From Candidatus Zhuqueibacterota bacterium (GTDB taxonomy: Bacteria > Zhuqueibacterota > Zhuqueibacteria > Oceanimicrobiales > Oceanimicrobiaceae), in the NCBI GenBank assembly GCA_029262005.1, contig JAJDAG010000017.1, forward strand, positions 13,473 to 77,472: a DNA stretch of 64,000 bases, written 5' to 3'. A program made the translations under genes and the position numbers. The notes below the pieces were generated by a model. The model was not told where the DNA came from. It did no database searches and saw only the letters and a program-made list of their open reading frames with translations. Position 1 is the first letter of the stretch. The number at the start of each line of letters is the position of its first letter. Shown one piece after another: positions 21,081 to 52,559 of the stretch.

Positions 21081-21129
21081 TTGTATTAAATTTATTGGTT
21101 TGAGGCTGGTGCCTGGGACAAAAAAATGG

Positions 21130-36267: not shown

Positions 36268-37812
36268 TCAATGAACCCACGCAGGTAGAGAAGTAGTCGA
36301 AATTTCAAATAATGGGATGACCACAAAATAGGTCAAGAGGGTTACTAATACAATCCCTAATAAATTAAGCAGTATTCCGGTCTTGGCCATCTGCGATATT
36401 GAGACGTAGCCGGAGGCAAAAATAATGGCGTTCGGGGGAGTTGCAACAGGAAGCATGAACGCACATGAAGCGGAAATTGTCGCCGGTATCATCAACAAAA
36501 GAGGATTTATTCCTATGCCCGCAGCTGTGCTGGCAAGTATAGGCATGAAGAGACTGGTTGTTGCAACGTTAGAGGTCAACTCGGTTGTGAAAGTCATTGT
36601 AGTACACGTTATCAAGATCATTACTGGCAGCGGTACACTTCCTAACAAAGATAGTTGCGTACCGACCCACTCAGCCAAACCGCTGCTCTTGAATCCGCCC
36701 GCTAGCGCAATTCCACCACCAAACAAAATCAAGATTCCCCATGGAATTTTGAGCGCAGATTCCCAATCGAGCAAAAATTTACCCCTTTTCAAATTAGCAG
36801 GAATACAGAATAATATGATGGCAGCCAGCATGGCAACCGTGCCATCGTGCAAGAAATCGGAGGCACCAAGCATTGAGGACCATCCTTTCAACGTGGTAAA
36901 TCCGATGGTCACATCCTTTCTCGTGATCCAGGCAAGCGCTGTCGCCGCAAACACAGCAGCCACGAGCTTTTCTTCAATTAACATCGGGCCAAGCTTATTA
37001 AGTTCTTCACGAATCACCTGTCTGCCCCCAGGAAGATTTTTATTACTTACCCTGAACGCAATCCTGGTCAGAACAATCCAGCATATCGGCAAGAAAAACA
37101 GGAGCAAAAGAGACCCGATTAAAATCCAGGTAAAAAAACTAATTTCCGGTGCTTCAGGATAGAGTTTTGAAAAGGCACTAACGAAAACGATATTGGGGGG
37201 CGTGCCGACAAGAGTTGAGATGCCGCCTATACTGGCCGCGTAAGCAATGCCAAGCATAAGCGCAGTTCTGAAATTTAATATGCTGTCGTCGGAAGCTGCG
37301 CCCTCGCCAGGCTGCCCTTCCATTAAGTGAAGAATTACCGCCAGACCAATCGGGTACAGCATCATGGTTGTAGCGGTATTTGATATCCACATGGACAAGA
37401 AAGCCGTTGCCACCATAAAACCAAGAATGATACGCCGTGGGCTTGTACCGATTACCCATATGAGATAAAGCGCAATCCGGCGATGCAATCCCCACTTTTG
37501 CATGGCGATTGCAATAAAAAATCCTCCCATAAAAAGAAATACGTTGCTGTTGGCGTAACTCGCCGCCACATCTCCAAAGCCGACCACACCAAAGAAAGGA
37601 AATAAGATTAAAGGCAAAAGAGCCGTCACAGGAATCGGAATGGATTCCGTCATCCAGAGAATAGCCATGATTGCCGCGATGGCAAAAACCCGCCAACCTT
37701 CAGCTGATAAGCCGGCAGGTGCAGGCATCATCAGCAAAATGACGAAAAGCGGCAAAGTGATAACAAAACCGATTAGTTGACGCTTTGAATAGTTTTCAGA
37801 TTTGTTCGGCAT
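36268..37812 (-). CDS. DASS-family (SLC13-like) sodium-coupled di/tricarboxylate or sulfate symporter
   Basis: 514 aa polytopic membrane protein. Duplicated hairpin-loop motifs (TPPNAIIFASG, TLVGTPPNIV) typical of the divalent anion:Na+ symporter family. Confidence 0.8.
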   Translation of the reverse strand: MPNKSENYSKRQLIGFVITLPLFVILLMMPAPAGLSAEGWRVFAIAAIMAILWMTESIPIPVTALLPLILFPFFGVVGFGDVAASYANSNVFLFMGGFFIAIAMQKWGLHRRIALYLIWVIGTSPRRIILGFMVATAFLSMWISNTATTMMLYPIGLAVILHLMEGQPGEGAASDDSILNFRTALMLGIAYAASIGGISTLVGTPPNIVFVSAFSKLYPEAPEISFFTWILIGSLLLLFFLPICWIVLTRIAFRVSNKNLPGGRQVIREELNKLGPMLIEEKLVAAVFAATALAWITRKDVTIGFTTLKGWSSMLGASDFLHDGTVAMLAAIILFCIPANLKRGKFLLDWESALKIPWGILILFGGGIALAGGFKSSGLAEWVGTQLSLLGSVPLPVMILITCTTMTFTTELTSNVATTSLFMPILASTAAGIGINPLLLMIPATISASCAFMLPVATPPNAIIFASGYVSISQMAKTGILLNLLGIVLVTLLTYFVVIPLFEISTTSLPAWVH

Positions 37813-37925
37813 AGATCAGTTATGCTTTGGATGAATAATGCAGGAGATAAAAGTGTCGGGTAGATTCGATTTTACTATGGTTAGTTGTTGAAACATGCGG
37901 ACTTAAAGTTTAATGTTTAGAAGTA

Positions 37926-38672
37926 TCAAAATCCCGAGTAACTTCCTTCAAGTTCAGACGCGGCAGCCTTGTCAATCACAACAGTCGCAAATTCATGGAG
38001 TTGTACAATTGTCGCAGGATACTTTGCCATTACAGGACCCTCAACTGTAGCTTTTATTGCATCCGCTTTTGCAGCACCACTGGCCAATAAGAGGAGCTCA
38101 TGAGCCTGCATTATTGTGCCCACCCCCATGGTAATGGCATACGTGGGCACCTCGTCCATATTTTCAAAAAAACGAGCATTGTCCTCGCAGGTTTGAGCGC
38201 TAAGAGTTTTTATACGTGTTCTAGAGCCCAAAGAAGACCCTGGCTCATTAAAAGCGATATGGCCGTTTGCGCCAATTCCCAGAATTTGTAAATCGATACC
38301 ACCACATTCTTCAATTTTTTCTTCATACCATAAACAAAATTCGTCAATATTTTCCGCCATTCCCATTGGAACGTGAACATGTCGCGGATCTACATTGATA
38401 TGCTTAAATAAATTCTCCCACATGAAATAGTGATAGCTTTGTTCATGCGAGGGCGGCAGCCCAACATACTCGTCCAGGTTAAACGTAATGACTTTCGAAA
38501 AATCCAGCCCCTCCTCTTTGTGCAACCGAATCAACTCTTTATACATACCCAAAGGCGTACTGCCCGTTGCAAATCCGAGGACACAATCCGGTTTTCTACG
38601 GACCAAACTTGCAAATAGTTTTGCCGCGTCTTTGCTCATTTCTTCAAAATTCTCTTTTATAACAACCAACAT
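37926..38672 (-). CDS. nagB: Glucosamine-6-phosphate deaminase
   Basis: 248 aa with LGFATGSTPLGMY, FNLDEYVGLP and GIGANGHIAFNEPGSS motifs. The start ATG directly abuts the stop of the upstream 879-aa gene (TAAATG). Confidence 0.9.
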   Translation of the reverse strand: MLVVIKENFEEMSKDAAKLFASLVRRKPDCVLGFATGSTPLGMYKELIRLHKEEGLDFSKVITFNLDEYVGLPPSHEQSYHYFMWENLFKHINVDPRHVHVPMGMAENIDEFCLWYEEKIEECGGIDLQILGIGANGHIAFNEPGSSLGSRTRIKTLSAQTCEDNARFFENMDEVPTYAITMGVGTIMQAHELLLLASGAAKADAIKATVEGPVMAKYPATIVQLHEFATVVIDKAAASELEGSYSGF

Positions 38673-41312
38673 TTACTTCTTCGGATATCCTTCTTTTTCC
38701 AGCCAATATAGTAAATATGGGACATTATAAGCATGTGTCCAGCCGAAAACCCTTGAGCCGCCGTTAAGAGTCCAGTTAGGGCGCCTGTCCGGTGTCAATT
38801 CATTCGGGGGCATATGATCCACACTTTCAAGGGCATTAAATAATTCAAGTTGGGTGTGTGTGCCATCAAAGAGATTTGAATCGGAAAGTTTGTCTGTTTT
38901 CAAAAAACCGGCCCTTTTAACAGCTTCGCGATACAGGCTTGGTTCTCCAGAAAATTTATATCCAATTAACAAACTGTGAATAGTCGATAAAAACGATTCC
39001 ATTCCGTGATTTCTAGGTGGAACATCACGTACCCAGCGTGCATGACGTACAAGAGCTGGTTGAATCCTGTTGTCCTCTGTGATCTGGAAATATTTTCGTA
39101 ACCCATGTGATACATAGACCTGTGCATACCCGTAGCGATCCAGCACAAGACTGCCGCCCTGCGGCTGTTGCAAGCGCAACATTGTGTTCACCCGATCTTT
39201 TAACTCTTTAAAATAGCGCTCGTCCTTGGTCGCGTCATATATCTCCGCCAAGTTCCAGACAGACAGGTACAGGCGCCTTCCTCTCAAATCATGCTCACCC
39301 CAAATGCGCTTAATGTAGGTATCTGCGGTTAATTTCGCGACTTCTAAACCACGGTGATATCCACTTAGATAGTAAGAGGCGACCCAGCCCATATTCCAGA
39401 CGTGTGCGCTATATAACGTCCCCCAATGCTGCCTGCCCTCACGGGCGCCCATTCCAAGATATGGATTGCCCTGAGGTTTATCCTTCTCTTTCCAAAAGTC
39501 GAGTGCATAGTTAGAATCACCGGCATATTCAGGGTCGGCTGGCCAGTGAATATTGTCTACATCCATACTGTGACGGCTTGCCGCCTCCGCTGAAAGGTAG
39601 ATGTTACGATCGCCGGTTCGCATAAAGTGCAGCCAGCGCATGTAATCCTGACCCGGTTCGTTATTATTCCATAAAAACCAATCCATTTTGAAGTAATATG
39701 TTTGCCTGTCTCCATAGTCAAACATGCCGTACCAAGGTTCCCAATTCTCGTTGAAAATCATCCACTTGAACTTGTAATCTAATCCCCGCTCAAATTCAGG
39801 AAATTTCTTTGAAGCAGGTGCAAATGAACCGTATACATCACTCTTCGCATACCATTCCGGTGCTGTATGTGCGATAGGCGGATCGAGAAAATAGCGCATT
39901 TTGTTCTCAAGCTCGGCGTGACTCTTACCGGCTTTGTGAAAGTTATAAACCAACTCTGTCGTCTTTGTTAAACCTTGGGCAAAATTACTGACCATACCGC
40001 CGTCCAATTCACTGGAAAGACGGGCAAAACTCATGGGGTCAGCCTCGGGAGACCAGGAAAAAGCAGTCACTTCTTTTCCAGCCACATCAAGGTTGATTTC
40101 CTTTGGGTATTCTTCAAAAAAATGCCGCATTCCAACGCTGATTCCCCAACGCCGGTCCGAAATATCCAACCAACCATCGGCTTTGGAGGATTCCACCAAG
40201 GTTTCAGAATCGGAGGCAATCTTCGCGAAAAAACCGTCAATTCTCTTTTCCGGCGTAGAATTCGGGACGGGGGGCATACGCGTCGGTTTTGGACCGGACT
40301 GTAAAATAGACACCACTTCTTGCGAGGTAACTGCGGTTTCGAAGAACTGTCTTTCTCCCGGCTGCCACCATTCCCCTTTGCGATAAGCAGTCACATAATT
40401 CAGGTCTCCAGACAATTTGTAGTCTAGAGAAATGCCTGCTGCTGCTATTCTATCATTTGGCTGTGCCCAGCCAGCATCGCTGACCAAACTCTTTTCATCA
40501 ACGATTTTTTCAGCCTGAGTGGCAATCAAAGCATGTTCACCTTCAAAAGGTTTGTGCTTGTCGGGTTCCCCCGTGTATGTAAGTGTATGAAGCACACGAA
40601 CATAAGATTTTCCGGCATAGGCGTGTACTCTCATGATAAATGGAGAGGGATTATTATCATCCCGTGAATATTGATATTCACCTTCCGCTTTGATTATCAT
40701 GTGCAGGGGACCAGAGCCCTTCTCAATCCAATTTCTTTTGATCACCGCCTTGGATTTGTCAAGTCCGAGATCGTCAAGAATATCGAGAAATGAACCCCGC
40801 CCTTCCGGCCCCTCAGCTATCACGTCATTTTCATCAAATCCATCTCCGGCCCCATCCAGTTCCACTTTGTCCAAAAAGCCGTTACCGTTTTTATTTATTC
40901 GGAAACGAAGTGGGCCGGTGGATATCGTAATAAAACCCCGTGCGCGTTGGTTATTGTTTACTAGAATCCTCTCGCTTGGTATCGGGGCGCGAACAACGGT
41001 TTTGCCATACTCAAGGAAATAGTTGCCTGAATTCTCGCAAAAAAAGAACACCCAAATCCATTTAATGCTTTCATCAGCGGGCATCCACGTGGTGACTTCG
41101 GTGATTTGAGAAGGGATTTCCTTACCTTTGGCATTTAAAACGCGTACATGGTCGGGCGAATGCAATACACCTTTCGGAAAGGGGACTCCCAGCGTCAAGG
41201 GTGCCCCTTCAATAGGCTGATTCACCTTCAAAGGAAGCCTTGACTGAGCCAGTGAGGATCCAAAAAGTGCAAGCAACGAGATTATTGCAATTATTCCGGT
41301 AATTTTTTTCAC
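38673..41312 (-). CDS. Secreted 879-aa protein of unassigned family. Candidate glycan-active enzyme (possible (alpha/alpha)6-barrel hydrolase/lyase) of the amino-sugar PUL.
   Basis: Signal peptide MKKITGIIAIISLLALFGSSLAQS. N-terminal beta-rich region and a C-terminal Trp/Tyr-rich region (HWGTLYSAHVWNMGWVASYYLSGYH, DYMRWLHFMRTGD) reminiscent of alpha/alpha-toroid glycosidases. No GH18, GH20 or GH2 signature. Translationally coupled to nagB. Confidence 0.5.
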   Translation of the reverse strand: MKKITGIIAIISLLALFGSSLAQSRLPLKVNQPIEGAPLTLGVPFPKGVLHSPDHVRVLNAKGKEIPSQITEVTTWMPADESIKWIWVFFFCENSGNYFLEYGKTVVRAPIPSERILVNNNQRARGFITISTGPLRFRINKNGNGFLDKVELDGAGDGFDENDVIAEGPEGRGSFLDILDDLGLDKSKAVIKRNWIEKGSGPLHMIIKAEGEYQYSRDDNNPSPFIMRVHAYAGKSYVRVLHTLTYTGEPDKHKPFEGEHALIATQAEKIVDEKSLVSDAGWAQPNDRIAAAGISLDYKLSGDLNYVTAYRKGEWWQPGERQFFETAVTSQEVVSILQSGPKPTRMPPVPNSTPEKRIDGFFAKIASDSETLVESSKADGWLDISDRRWGISVGMRHFFEEYPKEINLDVAGKEVTAFSWSPEADPMSFARLSSELDGGMVSNFAQGLTKTTELVYNFHKAGKSHAELENKMRYFLDPPIAHTAPEWYAKSDVYGSFAPASKKFPEFERGLDYKFKWMIFNENWEPWYGMFDYGDRQTYYFKMDWFLWNNNEPGQDYMRWLHFMRTGDRNIYLSAEAASRHSMDVDNIHWPADPEYAGDSNYALDFWKEKDKPQGNPYLGMGAREGRQHWGTLYSAHVWNMGWVASYYLSGYHRGLEVAKLTADTYIKRIWGEHDLRGRRLYLSVWNLAEIYDATKDERYFKELKDRVNTMLRLQQPQGGSLVLDRYGYAQVYVSHGLRKYFQITEDNRIQPALVRHARWVRDVPPRNHGMESFLSTIHSLLIGYKFSGEPSLYREAVKRAGFLKTDKLSDSNLFDGTHTQLELFNALESVDHMPPNELTPDRRPNWTLNGGSRVFGWTHAYNVPYLLYWLEKEGYPKK

Positions 41313-41371
41313 GCCGGGAAACCTCCTAAGTTAGATGTCATCTCTATTGCGCTAAAGCAAACCAGTCAGTT

Positions 41372-42229
41372 CTATTCTTTGTGACCATCGTAATAAAGTG
41401 CAGCGGCTCCTAATATCGCTATGTGTTCAAGTTCAGAGACCTCAATCTGCAGAGACTTAATTGAATTTGGATATGCAAAGGATTGTATTGACGCCCACAA
41501 AGCGTCCTTGAAAAACCGAAAGGCCTTTCGAACTGAGCCGCCAAATATAATTATCTCAGGGTCGTATGCATAAAGAATCGTTTTAATACCTTCCCCTAAA
41601 TGCCGTCCGAACTCTGCCCACGCTTTCAAAGCTTCTTCTTCATCTCGCACTGCTCGCTGAAAAAACTCCTTGCTTGTTTGCTTAAAATTCCTGGTGAAGA
41701 ACTGACCGCAACAGTAGTGCTCATAAATACTGTCCCTATAAGGCATCATGCCGAATTCTCCGGCGCCACAATTTATCCCCGCATAGGACTTGCCGTTGAC
41801 GATGACGCCGCCGCCGAACCCAGTTCCCAGGATAAGTCCAATTAGCGATTCATACTCTACACCCTTGCCGAAATATTTTTCACCGAGTGCAAAGCAATTC
41901 GCATCGTTATTCACAAACGTAGGAGTAGAATACTTTTCTTCCAATATGGACTTAATAGGCACTTTCTTCCAGGACGGTATATTCTGAACATCATAAACGA
42001 TGCCGTTTTTAATATCCACCACACTGGGGACACCAATGCCAATACCATCGAGGTTTTCAGGCTTGCTCTTATCTATTAATGCGCAAATCTGATCCAAAAC
42101 TTCATCCTCTGAACCTTTTGGATTTATTTTCACTGAGGACACCTCACCGAGCTGTTGATTGCGCACCAGGCCGACACGAACGTTAGTACCTCCTAAATCA
42201 ATTCCTAATATATTTTGCTCCTGCATCAC
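41372..42229 (-). CDS. ROK/BadF-type sugar kinase (putative GlcN/GlcNAc kinase)
   Basis: N-terminal ATPase motif ILGIDLGGTNVRVGLV and GTGFGGGVIVNG. Lacks the canonical ROK Cys-rich zinc motif. Confidence 0.65.
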   Translation of the reverse strand: MMQEQNILGIDLGGTNVRVGLVRNQQLGEVSSVKINPKGSEDEVLDQICALIDKSKPENLDGIGIGVPSVVDIKNGIVYDVQNIPSWKKVPIKSILEEKYSTPTFVNNDANCFALGEKYFGKGVEYESLIGLILGTGFGGGVIVNGKSYAGINCGAGEFGMMPYRDSIYEHYCCGQFFTRNFKQTSKEFFQRAVRDEEEALKAWAEFGRHLGEGIKTILYAYDPEIIIFGGSVRKAFRFFKDALWASIQSFAYPNSIKSLQIEVSELEHIAILGAAALYYDGHKE

Positions 42230-42307
42230 TGACTATCCCACAGATGAATATTCTTCTAAGAAATGTTTAAAATCGGCCTTTTGGCAATCGCGAGGCATTT
42301 TAGTATA

Positions 42308-43627
42308 CTATGCTGATTCCTTTTTACGAAGGTCGATTGTCTCATTCGTAATCAAGGGCTTAGCCCAGAAGCCGATGCTCATGATATAGCCCATGGCCAA
42401 ATACAGGAACAGCATTCCGTTTCTCAACCCAAAGATATCTCCAAGTCCACCAACAATTAACGGTAAAACAGCGCCGCCTATAATAGCGGTGACCAGAATT
42501 CCAGAAAAACTTCCGTGATGTTCTTCAACCGAATTGAGCGCCAGGGAAAATATAACCGGGTACATGACAGAGGAAAAAAAGCCAACCAAAGGAAAAGCAA
42601 TTAATGCGACCGAACCCGACATAAACAAGGCGGCAGTTAGGCTAACCATGGCTGCAATGGTAAATATCACAAGGACAATTTTGCTATCGAGCAATTTCAA
42701 CAATACGATACCCGCGATGCCACCAATAGTCATAGCTCCCCAGAACCATGCGACTGTTGTGGCGCCCGTGGTTTGTGGATCATAGCCATGATATTTATTG
42801 AGGAATTCAGATATCCAGTTTGCTACACCCTGCTCAAGCCCCACGTAAGTAAATATTCCAAGGAAAAATAAAATAACAGTTGGATTCTTAAGTAATTCAA
42901 GGTGAGTTTTTAAAGCGCCAACATGTTCGTCAGCTTTGCGCTCAACTTCAGGAATTTTTGAAACAAAAATGATTCCAACCATGAGCAGAGAAATAACAGC
43001 GAAAAGCCAATATAGGGATATCCAGGGTATATTTTCAGGAACGATCTTTGATAATGTCATGATCAAGATGTTTGAATCGGAAGATTCTTTCTCAAGATTG
43101 AGCACGAGATATGAATATACCAGAGGACTTATGAATGAGGCAGCGCCGAAAATCAATTGAGCTACTGTGGCATTAAATGCGAAGTGTTCCTCTCCCCCGG
43201 CTTCCCTCAACAAAGGATTAATAGCGACCTGCAACATGGCCATTCCAGAACCGATAAGAAACAGAGAAAAAACCGCAGTCAAATAACTTGGAAAGGCCGC
43301 CAAAATTAATGAGCCCAAAGACGCAATGGCGAAGGACGCAATCATGACGGGCTTTTCCTGGTATTTCTCAATGAGCAATCCCGCAGGAATCGACATAACG
43401 CCATAGGCGATAAAAAACGCGAACGGCAGCACAGCGACAAGGGTTAGGCTTAGCTCAAAATCATCTATAATCTCAGGAACGAGCGGACCAATGATGTTTG
43501 TTAAGAACGAAATAACAAAAAAGGTGAGAAAAATGAGACCGACGACAAAATAGCTTCTTCGAATTGGAATATCCTCCTTTTGGGTGAAATGCGAGGGCCC
43601 TATGGTGAGACTGTGGTACAAATACAA
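42308..43627 (-). CDS. MFS sugar permease (GluP/FucP/NagP-like)
   Basis: 439 aa, 12 predicted TM helices, 6+6 arrangement with a central loop. Sugar-porter-like motifs. Confidence 0.8.
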   Translation of the reverse strand: MYLYHSLTIGPSHFTQKEDIPIRRSYFVVGLIFLTFFVISFLTNIIGPLVPEIIDDFELSLTLVAVLPFAFFIAYGVMSIPAGLLIEKYQEKPVMIASFAIASLGSLILAAFPSYLTAVFSLFLIGSGMAMLQVAINPLLREAGGEEHFAFNATVAQLIFGAASFISPLVYSYLVLNLEKESSDSNILIMTLSKIVPENIPWISLYWLFAVISLLMVGIIFVSKIPEVERKADEHVGALKTHLELLKNPTVILFFLGIFTYVGLEQGVANWISEFLNKYHGYDPQTTGATTVAWFWGAMTIGGIAGIVLLKLLDSKIVLVIFTIAAMVSLTAALFMSGSVALIAFPLVGFFSSVMYPVIFSLALNSVEEHHGSFSGILVTAIIGGAVLPLIVGGLGDIFGLRNGMLFLYLAMGYIMSIGFWAKPLITNETIDLRKKESA

Positions 43628-43648
43628 GTTTGTCCATCGTTTTGGAAT

Positions 43649-44557
43649 TTACTTCAACATGGGGAATAACCTCTTGATTTCTTCGTCACTGGGCTGCTTA
43701 CCGTACTCGCATATTTCAAATGCTTCGGCATATTTTACATCAGTGGCTTTGTGAGTTCCGTACCATTTTTCAAGCGAGTCCCGGAGTTCAGGTGAGATAG
43801 AGGAACCCTGGTAGACCCCGAACACCTCCTTTAACCATTTCTTGCGGTCGGCAGCGCCTTCAGGTACTTCATCCGCTCTTCCCACTGTCCATGGCATCCA
43901 TTCATAAAACTGGGAAACGTGCGCATCCAGGCCAGCCATCTTTTTATCAACGGTTTTGTCGATAGCTACTGCTATGTCGGGTCGAAATGGATTCGGCCGC
44001 TGGAAACGATCGCTGAAATAAAGAAAAATCGGATTTTTTTTCAACGGCGGTGTATCCGGCGTGACATTCGGCACGATTACCAGATAGGCGGCATCCTGGA
44101 CCAACTCGCCCGTATAACGGTGGTCCGGATGGTAGTCATTCGGACGAGGAGAAAGCACAACGTCAGCATTCCACTTCCGGATTTCCCGTATGATCTGATG
44201 CCTGACTTTCAGACTGGGTACCAACTCAGCATCATGATTGTCTAAAGTAACATATTCGTCGATGCCTAAACGATGGGCGGATTCTTGGGCTTCGGCACGT
44301 CTGCGCCTGGCGAGGGCGCCACCGCCTTCTGTTTGGTGTCCGGCATCCCCATTGGTGACAGACACAAACTTCACCGCGTGCCCCATTTCGGCAAAAAGGG
44401 CGGCGGTGCCGCCAAACTTTGCATCGCAGTCGTCCGGGTGAGCTCCAATAGCTATGATTCGAAGCTTCCCACCATCCGTACCCGAACTTTGTGCGAATGA
44501 TAAAATGGTACTTAAAAGTATTGATGTAAGAACTAATAACTGCTTCATGGTATGCAC
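43649..44557 (-). CDS. PIG-L/LmbE-family N-acetylglucosaminyl deacetylase with signal peptide (periplasmic)
   Basis: Signal peptide MHTMKQLLVLTSILLSTILSFAQS. Zinc-binding motif IIAIGAHPDDCDAKFGGT and HPDH downstream. Confidence 0.75.
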   Translation of the reverse strand: MHTMKQLLVLTSILLSTILSFAQSSGTDGGKLRIIAIGAHPDDCDAKFGGTAALFAEMGHAVKFVSVTNGDAGHQTEGGGALARRRRAEAQESAHRLGIDEYVTLDNHDAELVPSLKVRHQIIREIRKWNADVVLSPRPNDYHPDHRYTGELVQDAAYLVIVPNVTPDTPPLKKNPIFLYFSDRFQRPNPFRPDIAVAIDKTVDKKMAGLDAHVSQFYEWMPWTVGRADEVPEGAADRKKWLKEVFGVYQGSSISPELRDSLEKWYGTHKATDVKYAEAFEICEYGKQPSDEEIKRLFPMLK

Positions 44558-44581
44558 TCTCCCACGTGTACAAAATAAAAA

Positions 44582-45556
44582 TTATTTTCGACCACTACCG
44601 ATTCCATCGGGCGCGCCTTTGTAATAGCGAAATCCTTCCATTGGTTTGCCGTCCCGCATTGGAATTTTTTTCATTCTCTCCAGAAACTTCTTGCGATCTT
44701 CTGGTTTTAGATCATCGGGACTAGGACCTGTGTAGTTGTTCCACGCTGCACTCATCTGACTTATATGCTGTGAACGCGCCTTTATTTTTTTCTCCTCGTG
44801 TCCGGTGATATCAACCCAGGTGTTAATATCTTTTTCAACGCCGCCATAAAACATATATTCCGGAATGGCATGGGCTTCGAGACCTTCATGGATGATTTGT
44901 GCAGGGAAAATTAAACGCCACTCAGCGGCACGTGCAGCATCCACCGACAGATAAGATGCCGCGCGGTGATCAGTCTTATGCCAGCGCACATAACCATGTC
45001 CCGGATCCCATGAGAACAGCACATCCGGCTTAATTTTTCGATAATGCCAGACCAGCCGCTGCACAACTTCTTCTTTGTCGGCAAACTCAACCATGCCATC
45101 GGTGTACCCAAGATTGATATAATGATCTGCCGGAATACCTAATTCAGCAAGCGCGTTGAGTTCTTCCTGACGCCGAATTTTGGACAGTCTGTCCCGGGTC
45201 ATGGTCGGGTCCTTAGTGCCCACATTACCGGTGGTCAGAAGAAGCACGTAGACTTCGTTGCCATTTTCTTGAAGGAGGGAGAGTGTCCCATATCTTCCGG
45301 CATCATCATCGGGATGAGCTCCAACCAATAGTATGGTCTTGCCTGTCCACTGTTCAACTGGCACCTCAGGTTGTCCAATAACCAGAACCGGCACCAAGAG
45401 AAATGCAGCCAACCAAGCTGTGACAAGTTTTGCACTACGCATAACATCTCCTATTCCTTTAATAATAACATCTGTTTTTTGTTCATCAAAAATGTAAATG
45501 TGACTGGCTCCAGTTATTTTCAAAACATAGAAATACCGGAGCCAGTCACAGCTCAC
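44582..45556 (-). CDS. Second PIG-L/LmbE-family deacetylase, secreted. The likely true start is the MRSAK Met near 45445.
   Basis: Signal-like LVTAWLAAFLLVPVLVIG. ILLVGAHPDDDAGRYGT zinc motif and a later HxxH region. Confidence 0.7.
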   Translation of the reverse strand: MSCDWLRYFYVLKITGASHIYIFDEQKTDVIIKGIGDVMRSAKLVTAWLAAFLLVPVLVIGQPEVPVEQWTGKTILLVGAHPDDDAGRYGTLSLLQENGNEVYVLLLTTGNVGTKDPTMTRDRLSKIRRQEELNALAELGIPADHYINLGYTDGMVEFADKEEVVQRLVWHYRKIKPDVLFSWDPGHGYVRWHKTDHRAASYLSVDAARAAEWRLIFPAQIIHEGLEAHAIPEYMFYGGVEKDINTWVDITGHEEKKIKARSQHISQMSAAWNNYTGPSPDDLKPEDRKKFLERMKKIPMRDGKPMEGFRYYKGAPDGIGSGRK

Positions 45557-45570
45557 AAAATCCGCGTTCT

Positions 45571-47019
45571 CTAATAGCCAGGATTTTGTGTCAGGCCTAA
45601 ATCTACCTCTCTTTGAGGGATAGGAAACAATAAATTGTTGGCGCCAGGCTGCGGAAATCCTTCAGCCGTCATGTGAGACTGCATCACTTCCAGAGCTCTT
45701 CCAAACCGCAGCAGGTCATACCAGCGGTGATTTTCAAAGGCCAGTTCTATTCTCCTTTCGTGGAGTAATTTGTCTTCGAACGATCCAGGCGTACTGGCGT
45801 CAATATCAGCCAGGCCGGCACGACTCCTCAGTTGATTTATCAAACCGTAGGCCTCTCCACCCTCACCAATAGCCTCCGCGAGCATAAGCAATACATCAGC
45901 ATAACGGAATACGGTGAAATTGTTATTGGCGTCATTATCGCCCGATGGCACACTCAAGTATTTCTTGATATACCTGGCATTTTGTGTAGCGCCGACCGCA
46001 TCCACGTAAGTCGTATCCATCGAGACAAAAAAGCGCGTATCATCCGGTTCATAAGCGTCAAGCATACTAAGGGTAGGCCTGTTGCGACCGCCGCTATCAA
46101 ATCCACCCACCAAATTCGAACTCGGCGAGAAGGATTGGCTATATCCGCTGCCCTCGCCAAATCCGCCGGACTTGAACTGGACCTCAAAGATAGATTCCGC
46201 ATTCAATTCATTTGCCGAGCCCCACAGGTCTGCATAACCGGATACCAATTGAAATGCACCGCTGTTAACAACTTCACGCAGAACAGATGCAGCAGAAGCC
46301 GAGTTCCCGGCAGTCAGGTACACCTTGGCTAACAAAGTTAGAGCTGCTCCCTTTGTCGCTTTGCCGCCAACTGTTGACGGGTGCACCTCGGGAAGTTTAC
46401 TTGCCGCATCAGTTAAATCAGTAATCAATTGCTCCAAAACGGTTGCAGCGGGAACCTGCGAGATCTGCTCAGAGACTGAAACAGTTTCGGTGATCGGCAT
46501 AGGAATATTTCCGAACAGCAGGGCTAAGTTATAATAAAGTAAAGATCTCAGAAAAAGCGCCTCCCCGGTAAAGCGATCTTTGTTTGGATTGATTCCAAAA
46601 TCTACATCGCCGATACGGGAGAGAACCGTGTTGGCCCTGGCAATCCCCGAGTAGGAGCCGACCCAGGCACCAAGGACAATTTCGTTTAAGGCGTCCTCTG
46701 TAAACTGGTTGATGACGGCTACCTGGAAAGAGAGGCCTGTCACATCGGCTCCCTGATCCGTGTTGTCCGATCTCATTTCCGTAAGCATCCAATAGCCACC
46801 TGTACCACCTGTGGCAACTGCACCGGTGGTTCCGTAGGTACCCCCGCCTTGTAAAGCATCGTAGATGCCGTTTACCGCAATCTCAATATCTGTTGCTGTA
46901 TTATAAAAATTTTCAACATTTCTTTCCGAATGCGGCGCCAATGACGTGAAATCATTGGAACACGACAATATAAATAATAATGAGAGCAGTAGGGATGCTG
47001 GAATTATTTTCTTCCTCAT
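45571..47019 (-). CDS. susD: SusD/RagB-family outer-membrane nutrient-binding lipoprotein
   Basis: Lipoprotein signal LLLSLLFILSCSNDF. SusD-like TPR helices (AVNGIYDALQ, RSLLYYNLALLFGNIPM). C-terminal region ends LTQNPGY. Confidence 0.85.
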   Translation of the reverse strand: MRKKIIPASLLLSLLFILSCSNDFTSLAPHSERNVENFYNTATDIEIAVNGIYDALQGGGTYGTTGAVATGGTGGYWMLTEMRSDNTDQGADVTGLSFQVAVINQFTEDALNEIVLGAWVGSYSGIARANTVLSRIGDVDFGINPNKDRFTGEALFLRSLLYYNLALLFGNIPMPITETVSVSEQISQVPAATVLEQLITDLTDAASKLPEVHPSTVGGKATKGAALTLLAKVYLTAGNSASAASVLREVVNSGAFQLVSGYADLWGSANELNAESIFEVQFKSGGFGEGSGYSQSFSPSSNLVGGFDSGGRNRPTLSMLDAYEPDDTRFFVSMDTTYVDAVGATQNARYIKKYLSVPSGDNDANNNFTVFRYADVLLMLAEAIGEGGEAYGLINQLRSRAGLADIDASTPGSFEDKLLHERRIELAFENHRWYDLLRFGRALEVMQSHMTAEGFPQPGANNLLFPIPQREVDLGLTQNPGY

Positions 47020-47051
47020 TTTGAGTTCCTCTCTGTTTTTTATGTTAGTTT

Positions 47052-50000
47052 TTAGAAGGTAATGTTAGTCCCTACTATCCAGGTTTTTGTCAGTGGGTAG
47101 GCTCCATAATCTTCTCCCTGAACGAGCATGTTTTGTGACTGAAGACTGACTTCTGGGTTAAACCCGATGTAGTCCGTAAGCGTAAAAAGATTTTTGCCGG
47201 TTATGTAGATTCTCACACCCTGAGCAACTCTGCTGGTCAAGGAGCGCGGAAGTCTGTACCCAATAGTAAGGTTTCTCAAGCGGAAATATGAACCATCCTC
47301 AACCTGATATGAAGACGGTCTATTGTTATTACCCTGCAACCCGGTTTGGCGATCGGCCCTGGGAGTTTGACCATTTCCGGGCTCTTCTGCAGAACGCCAG
47401 CGCTCATTAAGAATACCATAACTGTTAAAATTGGCCTCACCGTTTTTCATATGCCGGGCGGTAAGATTCATTATTTCCCGACCCTCAACGCCTTGGAAGA
47501 AGATACTCAGATCAAAGTTTTTGTAATGAAACCTGTTGGTAATCCCATAAATAAAATCGGGATGATAACTACCGGTAATCGTTCTGTCGTCGGTATTTAT
47601 GATGCCATCACCGTTGATGTCCTTGAATCTAAAATCACCGGGTTTGGGATCGGGTGCATTGGCATCCTGAGGTGCATTAGCAATATCCGCCTCTGACTGA
47701 TAGATACCGTCAACGACCCAGCCATAATAGCTGCCAAGCTCTTCCCCAACCTGAGTGATGTGCCTGATGCCGGCACCGCCAGCAGCCAGGATAGGTTCAT
47801 CTCCCGGGCCTAATTCAAGAACCTTGTTGTCATTAGCTGCGAAATTAAACTCGGTGGACCATTGGAATGCTCCAACCATGTTCCTTGAAGTAAGTGAGAG
47901 TTCGAAGCCTTTATTTTGCACCCTGCCAATGTTCTGCAAAGCGTTCGTAAAACCGGTTGCCGACTGCACCCCTACTTGAAGAAGCAAATCCTCAGTTTTA
48001 CTATTGTACCAATCGAAAGTACCATAAATTCTGTCTTCCAACAGCGCATAGTCGATTCCAAGATCAACTTGTTTTGTTGTCTCCCAGCCCAGTTTTTCAT
48101 TACTGATTGTTGCCGGGAATACAGCGCTAACAGGCTGATCATCGTCAATGTAGAGCTCTTGACCCAATAAGCCGATGGCCCCATAATTAGGAATCAGGAA
48201 GTTACCGGTCTCACCATAACTCGCTCTCAATTTAAATTCACTCAGGAAGCTAAGCTTCTCCTTCACAAACTCTTCTTGGGCCATTCGCCAGGCCACTGAA
48301 AATGAAGGGAATATGCCCGTTTGATTTCCCGGCCCAAATCTGGATGACTTATCTGAACGAATCGTAGCGGTCAATAGATATTTGTATTTGTAATTATAGT
48401 TAATTCGTGCCAACAAGGACACTAGAGACCATTCCTCTTTAACGCTGTTTCCATCCGTAACCAAGCCACCGGAAAGGGTCTGTACCTGATCATCCGGGAA
48501 GTTGCGAGCTATCACGGTATTTGTTTGACTCACGTCTTTCTGTGCAGTATAACCTAAAAGGGCTGTCAAATTATGAGCGTCCCTCACAACTTTTTTATAA
48601 TTTAGTGTATTTTCCCAAACCCAGTTAGTTCTCGTTGCCGAACTACTTTGGGCATAAGGGTCGCCTGTTGTTGCTGTTCTGTACAACAGACTATTGCCCC
48701 TGAAGAAAGAACCTTGAAAATTGTCTAGATCGACGCCAAACATCGATCTAAAAGTAAGATCTTTGACGAGAGAAATATCTGTGTAAATATTACCGAATGT
48801 TCTATGGTTGGCCAGACTTTCGTCAATACCGTCAATGATAGCTAATGGATTGCTGGCGGATGTGGTACCGCCGTCCAGAAAGGACTGAGCGCCATCGGCC
48901 GCACGCTGGTTGGGCCTGCCAAGATCATCAAAAGGCTTTACGACCGGAGAATGTACCATTGCCGAATAGACGATACCGGGAGGTCTGCCAAAATACGGCG
49001 CATTTGCAGGGACTCTATCGTTTTCAGTAAAAGCAGCATTAATGTTAGCGCCAAATGTTATGGATTCATTTAAATCGCCAACAAAACGCGCGCTTAAGGT
49101 GTATCTCTTAAATTGAGAATTTTCTATAATTCCATCTTGCTTTAGGTAGCCGCCGGAGATGTAATATGAACTATTTTGACCGCCACCCGTGACTGACACA
49201 TTAGAATTCGTAATTGGCGTAGAACTGAAGATAAGATCAAGCCAATCCGTATCCGTTCCATCCCAATTGACATATTGATCAGGCATCGTAAAATTGCCGG
49301 ATAAACCAGCACGCCCGTCATTGTTAGCCGGATTATAATTGGGGTTGTAATTAGCGCTACTCGGATTCAGAGGGTCCAAGTTGTCAATGTAATTGTTATT
49401 CCTGGCATCTTGTGTATAGGCTATTAATTCCTCAGCATTCATCATATCAGGCTGGTTTGCAACCGACTGAGTTCCCGTGTAGGCATCAAACCTGATGGTT
49501 GGCTTGCCGCCGCGCTTTCCTTTCTTGGTTGTAATCAGAACCACACCGTTGGATCCCCTTGAACCGTAAATAGCGGCGGCTGAGGCATCTTTCAAGATCT
49601 CAATGGATTCAATATCGGCTGGGTTTAACGCGGCCAGCGGATTTGTTGCCGGTGGCTTAAAGGCGGCACGACGCCGAAATAAAGTGCCCTGAAGATTCAA
49701 ATTTTTGGAAATCGGCAACCCATCGAGAACATACAATGGATCGTTTCCAGCGCTGATTGAGCCTGTTCCTCTTATTCGAATATTAGGTTCACCACCCGGT
49801 TCACCGGTATTTTCCTGAACATCAACACCCGATAGTTGGCCCTGGATAGCCTGCTCAAAACTAAGAACCGGGATATCTCTCAATGTCGCTGCCGAGATTC
49901 GAGAAACCGAACCCGTAACCTCTCTCCGTTGCTGAGTACCATACCCAACGACCGTCACCTCTTCCCCGCGAAGGACCTCGGAGGCCATGAACATATCGAT

Positions 50001-50630
50001 CTCACCACGACCACCGACGACAATTTCCTGACTCTTATACCCGACATATGTAAACACCAGGATGTCTTGCGGCGAGATATTTTCCAACTGATACTTGCCA
50101 TCGCTATCAGTAGTGGTCCCCGTCTGGGTGCCCTTCACCACAATATTTAGTCCTGGCAGCGGGGACCTGTCATCTTCGTCAACAACTCGCCCGGTAACCC
50201 GATGTGTCTGGACAATTACGCTAGTCGGTTCAGGGCCGGCAGCCGGCTCTATCTGCTGAAGAACCACAGTCCTGGTACCAACTTTTTTGTAGCCAATCGG
50301 ATGTTCGCCCAGAGTCGCTTCCAGGGCTTCTTGAAATTTTTTAGAAGAAGATGCCAACAGTGGCGCGGTTCGCCCGTTAACAACTTCATCATCATAAACG
50401 ATATAGACACCATAGGTTTCTTCGAGCTTGGACAGCGCCGCTCCCAAAGTCACGGATTGCCAGGCTGCCTGGTTTAAAAGCAGCCGATCAACAGTCTTGG
50501 ACGCCAGTTGTTGGGCCAGACTGTTCGTTGCAAGCATTCCAAGCACAACCACAAGGCATACAGTAATAAAGCGTCGCATAATTCTTCCTCCATTAGTAAT
50601 TACGGCACAGCATGTTAAGTAAAAAGTCAC
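47052..50630 (-). CDS. susC: SusC-like TonB-dependent transducer with an N-terminal STN signalling domain and a carboxypeptidase-regulatory-like domain. The true start is probably MRRFITV near 50579.
   Basis: STN-like N-terminal extension (SVTLGAALSKLEETYGVYIVYDDEVV). CarbopepD_reg_2 block (VTGRVVDEDDRSPLPGLNIVVKGTQTGTTTDSDGKYQL). Plug, 22-strand barrel, C-terminal TonB-receptor ending NITF. Confidence 0.9.
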   Translation of the reverse strand: MTFYLTCCAVITNGGRIMRRFITVCLVVVLGMLATNSLAQQLASKTVDRLLLNQAAWQSVTLGAALSKLEETYGVYIVYDDEVVNGRTAPLLASSSKKFQEALEATLGEHPIGYKKVGTRTVVLQQIEPAAGPEPTSVIVQTHRVTGRVVDEDDRSPLPGLNIVVKGTQTGTTTDSDGKYQLENISPQDILVFTYVGYKSQEIVVGGRGEIDMFMASEVLRGEEVTVVGYGTQQRREVTGSVSRISAATLRDIPVLSFEQAIQGQLSGVDVQENTGEPGGEPNIRIRGTGSISAGNDPLYVLDGLPISKNLNLQGTLFRRRAAFKPPATNPLAALNPADIESIEILKDASAAAIYGSRGSNGVVLITTKKGKRGGKPTIRFDAYTGTQSVANQPDMMNAEELIAYTQDARNNNYIDNLDPLNPSSANYNPNYNPANNDGRAGLSGNFTMPDQYVNWDGTDTDWLDLIFSSTPITNSNVSVTGGGQNSSYYISGGYLKQDGIIENSQFKRYTLSARFVGDLNESITFGANINAAFTENDRVPANAPYFGRPPGIVYSAMVHSPVVKPFDDLGRPNQRAADGAQSFLDGGTTSASNPLAIIDGIDESLANHRTFGNIYTDISLVKDLTFRSMFGVDLDNFQGSFFRGNSLLYRTATTGDPYAQSSSATRTNWVWENTLNYKKVVRDAHNLTALLGYTAQKDVSQTNTVIARNFPDDQVQTLSGGLVTDGNSVKEEWSLVSLLARINYNYKYKYLLTATIRSDKSSRFGPGNQTGIFPSFSVAWRMAQEEFVKEKLSFLSEFKLRASYGETGNFLIPNYGAIGLLGQELYIDDDQPVSAVFPATISNEKLGWETTKQVDLGIDYALLEDRIYGTFDWYNSKTEDLLLQVGVQSATGFTNALQNIGRVQNKGFELSLTSRNMVGAFQWSTEFNFAANDNKVLELGPGDEPILAAGGAGIRHITQVGEELGSYYGWVVDGIYQSEADIANAPQDANAPDPKPGDFRFKDINGDGIINTDDRTITGSYHPDFIYGITNRFHYKNFDLSIFFQGVEGREIMNLTARHMKNGEANFNSYGILNERWRSAEEPGNGQTPRADRQTGLQGNNNRPSSYQVEDGSYFRLRNLTIGYRLPRSLTSRVAQGVRIYITGKNLFTLTDYIGFNPEVSLQSQNMLVQGEDYGAYPLTKTWIVGTNITF

Positions 50631-50654
50631 TCTCTCCTTTAATTACAATTCAGG

Positions 50655-51758
50655 TTAAAATAAACTCTCGCCCTCCCCAAAAGTAATGAGAGCACCTTCT
50701 CGTCGAACCGGAATCTTCATGGCGTTTGCAAGTGCATCCGTAACAACGATCAAATTTTGATTTTCGATAGAGCCGGATAACGTTCTTTGTAGCAGCCGTT
50801 TGTCCGAAACTTTTACCCTAACGCCATACGTTTCTTCCAGGCGCGTCAAAATTTCTTTAAACGGAGTTTGTTCAAAAATCATTGAGTTCTTCCACCAGGT
50901 GACAAACGGATTGATATTCACCGAAACAGGCTTCAGCATTTGTTTTCCTTTTTTAAATTGCAGCAGGTCCCCTGGCGTTAGCTGAATTTTTGTGAGGGAA
51001 TTCAAATCCACGAGCCTGTCGTCACCCGAAGCAACTTCAACACCGCCTTCTTCAACAACTACACGCGTGCCGCTGCCGCGTTCATAAACTGCAAAGCGCG
51101 TACCGTTAACCGTAATCGTGCCATCCGCTGTATGCACGATGAACTTATCCCGCGGTACATCCAAACTTTTGGAGACTGCAAAATAAGCTTCACCCTTCAA
51201 TTCAAATCGATGCGCTGAAGATTGTGGCCACACTGCCGGATATCGTAAAGTTGAATTGGCATTTAATACAATTTTAGTTCCTTCAGGTAGCCTGATCGTA
51301 GCCCGTTGACCATATTCCGTTGAAATGAGTTGATAGCTTTCTCGCTCTGCAAGCTTTGCTTCTTTTTGCGAAGTATCAAACCAAATAATGACAGCTATCA
51401 GGAAAGTCGCAGCAAATGCTACTGCAGCAAATCGTCTCCAGCTATCATATCTCCGACGCTGAGGGGAAAGCCTGGTCTGAGTAGAAAAAGTTTGAACAGC
51501 TTCCTCTGTGTTTTTGTCGAGTTTCAATCTTTCCTTCAATTTGTTCCACTGTGAATCTATTGCTGGGCCTTCTGCGACGTTGAATTTCATAGATTCCATA
51601 AATTGCATCGCTTTCAAATAAAGCCTTTTATTCTCCGTGGAGCAATTTCGCCATGTATCCCATTTCTTCTGCTCCGATGGAGTCGCCCTCCCCAAAAGCC
51701 AGTCATGAAATGATTCGTCCAAGAGTAAAGAGATAAGGTCTTCCATACCTTGCATCAT
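50655..51758 (-). CDS. FecR-family anti-sigma factor (trans-envelope signalling partner of the SusC-like transducer)
   Basis: Single TM segment (AAVAFAATFLIAVIIW). FecR domain (VNGTRFAVYERGSGTRVVVEEGGVEV). C-terminal DUF4974-like region. Confidence 0.8.
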   Translation of the reverse strand: MMQGMEDLISLLLDESFHDWLLGRATPSEQKKWDTWRNCSTENKRLYLKAMQFMESMKFNVAEGPAIDSQWNKLKERLKLDKNTEEAVQTFSTQTRLSPQRRRYDSWRRFAAVAFAATFLIAVIIWFDTSQKEAKLAERESYQLISTEYGQRATIRLPEGTKIVLNANSTLRYPAVWPQSSAHRFELKGEAYFAVSKSLDVPRDKFIVHTADGTITVNGTRFAVYERGSGTRVVVEEGGVEVASGDDRLVDLNSLTKIQLTPGDLLQFKKGKQMLKPVSVNINPFVTWWKNSMIFEQTPFKEILTRLEETYGVRVKVSDKRLLQRTLSGSIENQNLIVVTDALANAMKIPVRREGALITFGEGESLF

Positions 51759-51903
51759 AGATTGTTTTCTTAAGTGTTTGTTAAATGATAGAATTGCAGT
51801 GCTTTATACTAAGAGAGAGATTAAATAAGAAAGTGTAATGGTCTTTTTTTAAAAAAAAGAAACATATGTAATGAGAATGAGAAGGTAGGATAGCTTGATG
51901 AGA

Positions 51904-52515
51904 TTATGTCGGGGGCGCCAGCAGCGTCTTAAGACGGTGGTATGCTTCCGACAAATAATTGCGTACGACTTGGGGTCTTACGCTCATAATCTCGGCGATT
52001 TCTTTATAGGTTAGATTGTCATTCATCTTAAGATAAAGCGCCTCCCGCATCCGCGCCGGAATCTTTTTAAATGCAGACCGAAGCCTTTTCTGTTCAAATG
52101 TTTCCTGCTCTGCAAATATCATCAAATCTTCCAGTGTAAACACGTTGTCAACTTGTTCCACCGTAAACTCTTGATGAGCTGTTTCTTGCCGCCGTTGCTT
52201 GCTAAGGGTATTCAACAAACGGCGGCGCAATGAAACAAGCAGATAGGCTTTAATTGAATCCACCGATGAAAGATTTCTTCGTTTTTCCCAAATATATAAA
52301 AACAGTTCCTGGATAGCGTCTTTTACTAACTCTTCTTCTCTGGCCAGTTTTACGCCATAGTCGAATAGGTAAGAATAATAGGCTCGAAACAAAGACTCCA
52401 AAGCCTGAGCATCGCCTTTTTTTAACCGCGCCCAAACTTGACGCTCCTTTTGAATTCGCTCAAGCTTATCGGACGACTCTAAAGAATTTGAAATAGATAC
52501 GTTATTATTTTTCAA
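51904..52515 (-). CDS. ECF sigma-70 factor controlling the PUL
   Basis: Region 2 (YYSYLFDYGVKLAREEELVKDAIQELFLYIW) and region 4 HTH (LTYKEIAEIMSVRPQVVRNYLSEAYHRLK). Confidence 0.85.
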   Translation of the reverse strand: MKNNNVSISNSLESSDKLERIQKERQVWARLKKGDAQALESLFRAYYSYLFDYGVKLAREEELVKDAIQELFLYIWEKRRNLSSVDSIKAYLLVSLRRRLLNTLSKQRRQETAHQEFTVEQVDNVFTLEDLMIFAEQETFEQKRLRSAFKKIPARMREALYLKMNDNLTYKEIAEIMSVRPQVVRNYLSEAYHRLKTLLAPPT

Positions 52516-52559
52516 TTAGAAGAAGCATTTTGTTAGCGCACGATGCAAACTCAATTAAC

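Follow-up and report, generated by a model that had tools for sequence, protein, structure and literature searches.

The DNA examined here, a stretch of 64,000 nucleotides from contig JAJDAG010000017.1 of Candidatus Zhuqueibacterota bacterium (hereafter the window), carries on its minus strand a run of ten co-oriented open reading frames (ORFs) at positions 37926-52515, with intergenic gaps of 0-145 nt. The composition given for this run in the preliminary description—an extracytoplasmic function (ECF) sigma factor, FecR, SusC, SusD, two PIG-L proteins, a permease of the major facilitator superfamily (MFS), a ROK protein, an 879-residue protein and NagB—is confirmed by Pfam and NCBIfam, but its extent was drawn too short: a symporter gene of the divalent anion/sodium symporter (DASS) family at 36268-37812, on the same strand and 113 nt downstream of nagB, had been overlooked and belongs to the unit, which comprises 11 genes once it is counted. 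Taken as a whole, the unit is an operon of the Sus type, deeply conserved and devoid of any glycoside hydrolase (GH), in which enzymes of carbohydrate esterase family 14 (CE14) and of a type resembling polysaccharide lyase family 26 (PL26) are combined with the catabolism of glucosamine (GlcN) and with a dicarboxylate symporter.

The first gene of the unit encodes the ECF-type sigma-70 factor (51904..52515, minus strand, as are all the genes of the unit), recognised by the Pfam domains Sigma70_r2 and Sigma70_r4_2 and by TIGR02937 (63.8 bits, cut-off 42.9), and is followed by that of the FecR-type anti-sigma factor (50655..51758; Pfam FecR 67 bits, FecR_C 43.4 bits). Both lie upstream of the adjacent SusC and SusD genes, between which there are 32 nt. 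The SusC/RagA-type TonB-dependent transporter (47052..50630) scores 915.7 bits with TIGR04056 and exhibits the TIGR04057 signature as well as CarbopepD_reg_2 and Plug domains, its true start being probably near 50579, whereas the SusD-like outer-membrane lipoprotein (45571..47019; Pfam SusD_RagB 114 bits, SusD-like_3 85 bits) begins with a segment, ...LFILSCSN, that reads as a lipobox, and finds its top NCBIfam match, a weak one, in NanU. Concerning the STN domain ascribed earlier to the SusC transducer, an N-terminal extension of about 120-126 residues does exist, but the STN match within it is not significant (PF07660, E 0.06, 13.6 bits); for the SusC orthologue of a related, Salegentibacter-like locus, L085, a "weak" STN match is likewise on record.

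The enzymes come next, starting with two secreted PIG-L/LmbE de-N-acylases of the CE14 type, paralogue A (44582..45556; Pfam PIG-L 87 bits), which probably starts at the Met at ~45442 with the signal peptide next, and paralogue B (43649..44557; Pfam PIG-L 95.7 bits). They are followed by an inner-membrane MFS permease of the GluP/FucP/NagP type (42308..43627; Pfam MFS_1 122 bits, and, below cut-off, TIGR01272 gluP 135 bits and NagP 87 bits), presumed to be the GlcN importer, and by a ROK-family sugar kinase lacking a DNA-binding domain (41372..42229; Pfam ROK 160.9 bits, the best NCBIfam matches being the ROK glucokinase/N-acetylglucosamine (GlcNAc) kinase, below cut-off), the presumed GlcN kinase. 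The signature gene of the locus encodes the secreted, three-domain 879-residue protein with three Pfam PcRGLX domains (38673..41312), behind which lies the glucosamine-6-phosphate deaminase NagB (37926..38672), identified by both TIGR00502 (316.7 bits, cut-off 236.9) and NF001684 (349 bits, cut-off 326). The last gene is that of the DASS/SLC13-type Na+-coupled anion (di/tricarboxylate) symporter (36268..37812; TIGR00785 293 bits, cut-off 198.6). Secretion of both PIG-L proteins and of the 879-residue protein, as proposed before, agrees with the signal-peptide-like N-termini read from their translations, which look like ordinary signal peptides rather than lipoboxes. The adjacent susC/susD pair, the linked CE14-type and PL26-like genes and the ECF sigma/FecR genes upstream are the features of a Sus-like polysaccharide utilization locus (PUL).

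The absence of GH18, GH20 and NagA, stated earlier, holds for the locus and for the whole 64-kb window, and neither the locus of the window nor the core conserved among related loci includes a surface endo-acting, polymer-attacking enzyme. The proposal of a deacetylase-first, NagA-free amino-sugar route is upheld, the locus being of the Sus type with secreted CE14/PIG-L proteins in place of NagA, and NagB, the ROK protein and the MFS permease do fit the uptake and phosphorylation of GlcN. Promoter and terminator scans of the region 35000-53200 gave no usable operon boundaries, terminator-like sites being rarer than in shuffled sequences, and an Rfam scan of the whole window returned zero matches. 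It should be pointed out that the attribution of the locus to the Bacteroidota is doubtful: the nearest orthologues, 85-89% identical, come from Caldithrix sp. and candidate division KSB1 metagenome-assembled genomes (MAGs), so that the source is probably not a member of the Bacteroidota in the strict sense.

The conservation of the locus was evaluated by a scan with one genome per species, which detected 269 relatives; 80 loci were retrieved, ORFs were called in each locus and compared with the window proteins, and the remainder were clustered. The counts below refer to the 77 loci with a callable PL26-like ORF and to the contiguous run of genes on the same strand, many loci being cut by contig ends. 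The recurrent module consists of SusC/SusD or another TonB-dependent transporter together with PIG-L, MFS, ROK and PL26-like proteins, and is present in about 80 genomes from Calditrichota/KSB1, Rhodothermia, Balneolia, several classes of Bacteroidota and Acidobacteriota. Among its cultured carriers are Pedobacter caeni DSM 16990, Gracilimonas tropica DSM 19535, Daejeonella oryzae DSM 19973, Rhodocaloribacter litoris, Salinibacter ruber and Salegentibacter mishustinae. A PIG-L gene is found in 52 of the 77 loci, MFS in 48 and ROK in 45, followed by SusD (43/77), SusC (41/77), FecR (31/77) and the ECF sigma factor (26/77), while nagB is seen in four of the 77 same-strand runs and, in addition, as a NagB-LmbE fusion in Salegentibacter-like loci. 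The usual order—ECF, FecR, SusC, SusD, PIG-L, MFS, ROK, PL26-like—is kept in Balneolaceae, Gracilimonas, Cyclobacteriaceae, Saprospiraceae, Sphingobacteriia and others; it is permuted in Pedobacter, and in Blastocatellia and other Acidobacteriota the core is shrunk to a TonB-dependent transporter, a PIG-L protein of ~920-950 residues and the PL26-like protein, with a ROK-type regulator adjoining. No recurrent GH or other carbohydrate-active enzyme family was detected among the related loci, and GH18, GH20 and NagA do not figure among the gene families that recur in 84 related loci. The literature searched offered no description of this type of locus, which combines the SusC/SusD plan of a utilization locus with a novel enzyme logic and, probably, with a substrate class that is new.

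The sole locus with a possible glycoside hydrolase is that of a Prolixibacteraceae MAG (L050, 8135-14148), where the order SusC-SusD-PIG-L-PL26-like-PIG-L is followed by four same-strand ORFs judged by eye to encode a LamG-like protein, a GH29-like α-L-fucosidase, an AAA ATPase and a 682-residue protein.

The 879-residue protein, previously said to belong to no recognisable family, is a member of a known one: the domains PcRGLX_1st, PcRGLX_2nd and PcRGLX_3rd are all above the Pfam gathering scores, and the protein aligns with the PL26 exo-rhamnogalacturonan lyase PcRGLX from Penicillium chrysogenum (PDB 5xq3) with E 4e-16 and 18% identity, sharing its three-domain architecture and fold. Enzymes of PL26 act in the exo mode from the reducing end, cleaving α-L-Rha-(1→4)-α-D-GalA (rhamnose and galacturonic acid) by β-elimination (PMC13501991). 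Both sequence and profile alignments reveal five motif blocks common to the fungal lyase and the bacterial family, i.e. WYGxxDYGD (residues 527-535 of the 879-residue protein), NxExxxD (551-556), RTG (565-567), AEAxxRHxxxVDxxH (575-589) and GxGxRHGxQHW (620-630); beside them, at 590-617, there is an insertion of ~25 residues that is conserved in, and specific to, the bacterial family. In the structure model of the protein, confidence was low for residues 583-637. The orthologues form a tight group, each full-length one listed sharing at least 51% identity with the window protein across phyla, and the group amounts to essentially one representative in the 50%-identity library, while the wider PcRGLX-like superfamily comprises ~2,500 clusters at ~30% identity. 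In both NCBI and UniRef the orthologues bear the name "exo-rhamnogalacturonan lyase family protein"; no function for the bacterial PL26-like proteins was found in the literature.

Both PIG-L proteins possess the HxDD...H metal motif, in the form of H81-P-D-D and H193-K-T-D-H197 in paralogue A (long-ORF numbering) and of H40-P-D-D and H143-P-D-H146 in paralogue B. Their NCBIfam matches are limited to enzymes of low-molecular-weight thiols, namely BshB1, BshB2/Bca, Mca and MshB: TIGR04001 (BshB1) gives 118.7 bits (cut-off 182.5) for paralogue B, TIGR04000 gives 57 bits (cut-off 195.25), and for paralogue A the best matches are BshB2, BshB1 and Mca, each below cut-off. Within the PIG-L superfamily, BshB deacetylates GlcNAc-malate and the amidase Bca cleaves the cysteine-GlcN amide (PMC4101496). 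The clade of paralogue B is conserved to a still higher degree, its orthologues being 65-75% identical across phyla and always equipped with a signal peptide.

Two further observations concern the PIG-L proteins of other loci. In one Bryobacterales genome (L086, 8869-13740) there is a secreted PIG-L protein that shares 68% identity with paralogue B but is not adjoined by a PL26-like gene, being flanked instead by genes for a GFO_IDH_MocA oxidoreductase and for SelA-like and class-III aminotransferase proteins, and therefore the clade of paralogue B appears to serve another pathway, too. The PIG-L partner found in Pedobacter and Acidobacteriota differs from the small, single-domain enzymes of the window in being a large multidomain protein, 833-946 residues long, with PIG-L and NPCBM_assoc domains (L002, 18622-21123; L003, 7185-9950); by eye, its C-terminal region resembles a ThuA/GATase-like domain.

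A transporter of the C4-dicarboxylate type is part of the same-strand run in 35 of the 77 loci, being DASS in 25 and DctA in 10. The former lies right after the PL26-like or nagB gene in its 25 loci, which include those of Calditrichota/KSB1, Salinibacter, Salinivenus, Rhodocaloribacter, Balneolia and a Salegentibacter-like flavobacterium; the latter (NF002461, 569 bits, cut-off 513), unrelated to DASS in sequence, replaces it in the further ten and is placed after PIG-L in Pedobacter, before the ECF sigma factor in Chitinophagaceae and in the order DctA-PIG-L-MFS-PL26-like in the locus L070. With the DASS position after the PL26-like or nagB gene included, there are at least four transporter arrangements across the loci. 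The nearest solved structure to the DASS protein of the window is the human Na+/dicarboxylate carrier NaDC1, SLC13A2 (1.8e-98). The recruitment of two non-homologous transporters in several arrangements argues that a C4-dicarboxylate belongs to the pathway.

Some lineages add, within the operon or right next to it, genes related to cysteine. In the Salegentibacter-like loci, DASS is followed at a distance of 31 nt by a cysteine-desulfurase-like gene of the SufS family, whose product has 14 NCBIfam matches, every one of them to a cysteine desulfurase or to selenocysteine lyase; in Cytophagales, an MTOX/MSOX-type oxidase of N-methyl-L-amino acids (231 bits, cut-off 257), which would suit N-methyl-cysteine, is situated between SusD and PIG-L; and a TlpA-like redoxin, which would suit a disulfide, follows the PL26-like gene in Sediminibacterium. 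The insertion between SusD and PIG-L in Cytophagales (L013, 3266-6531; L014; L021) consists of a DUF2911-TPR protein, a Glyoxalase_3 protein of the VOC fold and the MTOX/MSOX-like FAD oxidase.

The core genes require a substrate with an N-acylated hexosamine, on which PIG-L could act, a lyase-like cleavage next to a carboxylate, and a neutral or amino sugar plus a C4-dicarboxylate as the products; and since a surface endo-enzyme is absent, the substrate should be small enough for direct import by SusC/SusD. To our knowledge, the natural compounds that unite GlcN with a C4-dicarboxylate are bacillithiol, its N-methyl derivative and GlcNAc-malate. Cysteine, to which the accessory genes of single lineages relate, is the third moiety of bacillithiol. 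Based on this gene context, it is tentatively suggested, at somewhat short of an even chance, that the operon scavenges a small N-acyl-glucosamine conjugate with a C4-dicarboxylic acid as the aglycone, the bacillithiol-type compounds being the best candidates. That it would represent the first dedicated pathway for the uptake and catabolism of bacillithiol-type thiols, with a periplasmic "glucosaminyl-malate lyase" of the PL26 superfamily releasing fumarate and GlcN, is a more specific claim and a rather doubtful one, though a serious possibility.

In the proposed mechanism the conjugate—L-Cys-GlcN-α(1→2)-L-malate, its disulfide and S-conjugates, N-methyl-bacillithiol or the precursor GlcNAc-malate—would be imported by SusC/SusD, with the N-terminal extension of SusC signalling via FecR to the ECF sigma factor. 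In the periplasm the PIG-L enzymes would strip the N-acyl group, acetyl or cysteinyl, and leave the free amine of GlcN, after which the PL26-like enzyme would split GlcN from the acid, probably by β-elimination to GlcN and fumarate, hydrolysis to malate being the alternative. In chemical terms, the C3 protons of a 2-O-glycosyl malate stand α, and its glycosidic oxygen β, to a carboxylate, and a lyase-type β-elimination would accordingly be expected to yield fumarate and GlcN. The amino sugar would then enter through the MFS permease, be phosphorylated by the ROK kinase and be deaminated by NagB to fructose-6-phosphate, with no need for NagA, and the dicarboxylate would be taken up by DASS or, in other lineages, by DctA. 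The pathway formulated in this way closes, i.e. it offers a role for every conserved gene and has no missing step, which is counted in its favour. Producers of bacillithiol and N-methyl-bacillithiol occur in Bacteroidetes, Chlorobi, Acidobacteria, Firmicutes and Deinococcus-Thermus (PMC6282198), and so broad a spread makes a widespread scavenging system plausible. A literature search revealed no route for the degradation, uptake or export of bacillithiol. Nor do we know of any described degradation route for bacillithiol-type thiols outside the cell.

Several points weigh against the scavenging of a bacillithiol-type conjugate, the basis of which is gene context throughout. With regard to the PL26-like enzyme, in the 620-630 region the window protein and its two nearest relatives (P0001, P0002) carry G-A/S-R-E-G, as opposed to G-R/K-R-H-G in every one of the 29 remaining aligned orthologues and G-T-R-H-G in the fungal PcRGLX; a His that is otherwise kept from fungus to bacteria has thus become Glu in the window clade, in which nagB and a pair of PIG-L genes are present as well. 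Concerning the PIG-L proteins, their top relatives in the PDB are the archaeal diacetylchitobiose deacetylases (Dac; 2e-22 for B, 5e-18 for A), and a single-sequence comparison gives 83 bits for Dac as against 61-63 bits for BshB (E 4e-16 for B). The scores with the BshB/Bca hidden Markov models are all under the curated cut-offs. In BshB, Arg109, which precedes His110, contacts the substrate (PMC4101496), whereas its place is taken by Tyr in paralogue B (NDYHPDH) and by Trp in paralogue A. Each of the cysteine-related accessory genes is confined to one lineage and none is present in the window—all the loci and the window having been searched—and TlpA-like genes are common in these phyla anyway. 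A reverse test of locus exclusivity revealed relatives of the L085 DASS, 66-68% identical, in other contexts, i.e. in a different SusC/SusD-hypothetical-DASS-Big_5 locus in Muricauda and Psychroflexus and standing alone in Leeuwenhoekiella; since, moreover, the DASS family also carries sulfate and phosphate, DASS by itself is not specific and the argument for a dicarboxylate needs DASS and DctA together. Finally, bacillithiol is a minor constituent, ~1 µmol per g dry weight (PMC6282198), for which a dedicated carbon-source operon would be unusual.

The different locus just mentioned (L087, 4510-14683, in Allomuricauda ruestringensis; L089, 4539-14223, in Psychroflexus), with a DASS 66% identical to that of L085, comprises SusC, SusD (SusD-like_2), a hypothetical protein of ~255 residues, DASS, a Big_5 protein and another hypothetical protein, and represents another uncharacterised Sus-type system for an anionic substrate.

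Another acidic GlcNAc oligosaccharide or conjugate as the substrate is somewhat unlikely, yet worth keeping in view. It could be GlcNAc-(1→4)-uronic acid of the heparosan or hyaluronan type, a fragment of a capsule or cell wall, or an undescribed metabolite of GlcNAc and an acid, deacetylated before its cleavage by the exo-lyase. The fold and motifs of the PL26-like protein imply a carboxylate beside the scissile bond and the secreted CE14 enzymes an N-acyl amino sugar, the anion symporter is conserved, and the strong conservation of both the clade of PIG-L B and that of the PL26-like protein points to one defined and widespread substrate. However, unsaturated uronyl hydrolases of GH88 and GH105, KduI/KduD, sulfatases and uronate transporters are lacking in every locus; an unsaturated uronate is, according to the general knowledge of DctA specificity, not a substrate of DctA; and a polymer would be out of reach without a surface endo-acting enzyme. 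A PUL of the heparosan or other glycosaminoglycan type was rejected for the absence of GH88, Kdu genes and sulfatases, an origin of the substrate from mycothiol for the absence of inositol genes, the dicarboxylate transporter also being left unexplained, and an origin from GlcNAc-Asn for the absence of glycosylasparaginase.

The scavenging of chito-oligosaccharides produced by other organisms, deacetylated in the periplasm by PIG-L as by the Dac of Thermococcus and then split by the PL26-like protein acting as an exo-β-D-glucosaminidase, the GlcN being imported, phosphorylated and deaminated, has to be regarded as unlikely, despite the economy by which two enzymes would be enough to convert the oligomers to GlcN. 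The Dac enzymes are, as given above, the best solved relatives of both PIG-L proteins, and because of this the likeness to Thermococcus drawn in the preliminary description has some basis in sequence; nagB, ROK and a NagP-like MFS permease are present and NagA is absent, the (α/α)6 domain of the 879-residue protein also resembles many glycoside hydrolases, and a regulator of the ROK family accompanies the loci of Acidobacteriota. That likeness does not extend to the cleaving enzyme, no GH35-type or other known glucosaminidase family being present in the locus, and none of the ~80 loci contains GH18, GH19, GH20, GH2, GH9, GH35 or GH46. The cleaving enzyme has the motif blocks of a lyase, whereas chito-oligosaccharides have no carboxylate, and the recurrent DASS/DctA and the cysteine-related accessory genes would be left unexplained. 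The chitin-like substrate considered earlier is not supported: a chitinase or glucosaminidase family is absent from the ~80 loci, and the transporter of the C4-dicarboxylate type speaks for a conjugate that contains an acid and not for chito-oligosaccharides.

An ordinary pectin (rhamnogalacturonan-I) PUL, with the 879-residue protein as an exo-rhamnogalacturonan lyase like PcRGLX, is highly improbable and was rejected, since the Pfam domains, the 5xq3 match and the database names that speak for it are set against an identity to PcRGLX of just 18%, the absence of GH28, GH105, GH106, GH78, CE8, CE12 or any other pectin gene from every locus, amino-sugar genes as the invariable partners and the family-wide insertion of ~25 residues beside the conserved motifs. 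The profile search suggested earlier as a check on this protein does lead to a known family outside amino sugars, its sole characterised member being a pectin exo-lyase, and this is formally an outcome that the preliminary description had named as refuting its reading, but the genomic context rules out pectin.

The closest known systems help to place the locus. The chitin pathway of Thermococcus/Pyrococcus proceeds from Dac to the exo-β-glucosaminidase GlmA, a GlcN kinase and a GlcN-6-phosphate deaminase, and the route proposed here would share with it the initial step by a PIG-L/LmbE deacetylase, the cleavage to free GlcN, and phosphorylation and deamination without NagA. It differs in having a PL26-like enzyme instead of a GH35-type GlmA, a ROK kinase instead of an ADP-dependent one, and a NagB-type deaminase; in addition, the enzymes of the operon are periplasmic and stand behind SusC/SusD, a chitinase is absent, and a dicarboxylate symporter belongs to the unit. 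In comparison with PcRGLX, the low identity of the window enzyme goes together with the insertion 590-617 and with a gene context of amino sugar rather than pectin.

BshB1 and BshB2-Bca, the best-scoring curated families, share the superfamily and the metal motif with the PIG-L proteins of the window and act on the kind of GlcN-malate conjugate that is proposed here as the substrate (PMC4101496). They are, however, cytoplasmic and serve biosynthesis or detoxification, whereas the window proteins are secreted, score under the equivalog cut-offs, do not conserve Arg109 and would have a catabolic role in the periplasm. The sialic acid transporter NanO/NanU offers a parallel for a SusC/SusD pair that handles a ligand the size of a monosaccharide with no surface endo-enzyme, but its ligand is different, and ECF-sigma/anti-sigma signalling and the periplasmic CE14 and PL26-like enzymes are features of the present system. 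The GalNAc deacetylase (N-acetylgalactosamine) and galactosamine-specific galactosaminidase of Flavonifractor plautii, used in blood group A conversion, are also to be listed among the closest systems.

The remaining part of the window is of a housekeeping nature, with genes of the shikimate and tryptophan pathways, DNA repair, Lon and signalling proteins. Between the end of the DASS gene and the gene of EPSP synthase there are ~1.1 kb (35169-36267) with no ORF longer than 91 residues and no Rfam match. Within the run of aroE, aroA and aroC, an unusual fusion joins a type II 3-dehydroquinase (DHquinase_II) to a C-terminal GAF domain (30448-31326), which suggests ligand control of the enzyme. 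A trpE-like ORF of only 190 residues (region of 53578-54150 and 53025-53597) consists of Anth_synt_I_N joined directly to the final ~50 positions of the chorismate-binding domain, so that the catalytic domain is largely missing; its overlap with trpG is 20 nt. The explanation may lie in an internal deletion, a pseudogene or an assembly artefact. At 18120-21582 there is a cluster of the partner-switching type, composed of a response-regulator-SpoIIE phosphatase, a GAF-SpoIIE phosphatase and an anti-sigma-type kinase with HATPase_c_2. Two large secreted proteins (54521-56638 and 61301-63241) end with C-terminal sorting domains of type IX secretion (Por_Secre_tail; CHU_C/FlgD_ig), in consistency with an organism of the FCB (Fibrobacterota-Chlorobiota-Bacteroidota) group.

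Whatever its substrate, the locus is among the most conserved operons of the PUL type without a glycoside hydrolase, it presents a NagA-independent, deacetylase-first amino-sugar route in bacteria, and it is a warning not to annotate loci of this kind as PULs for pectin or chitin. Should the proposed scavenging of a bacillithiol-type conjugate be true, environmental bacteria of the FCB group and Acidobacteriota would harvest the dominant bacterial redox thiol from necromass for carbon, nitrogen and sulfur, and the extracellular fate of bacillithiol-type thiols would become testable by experiment. A gene set of hundreds of environmental genomes, labelled at present "exo-rhamnogalacturonan lyase family" and "PIG-L deacetylase", would thereby gain a function, and the large and almost wholly uncharacterised PL26-like superfamily would acquire a second, chemically unexpected activity.

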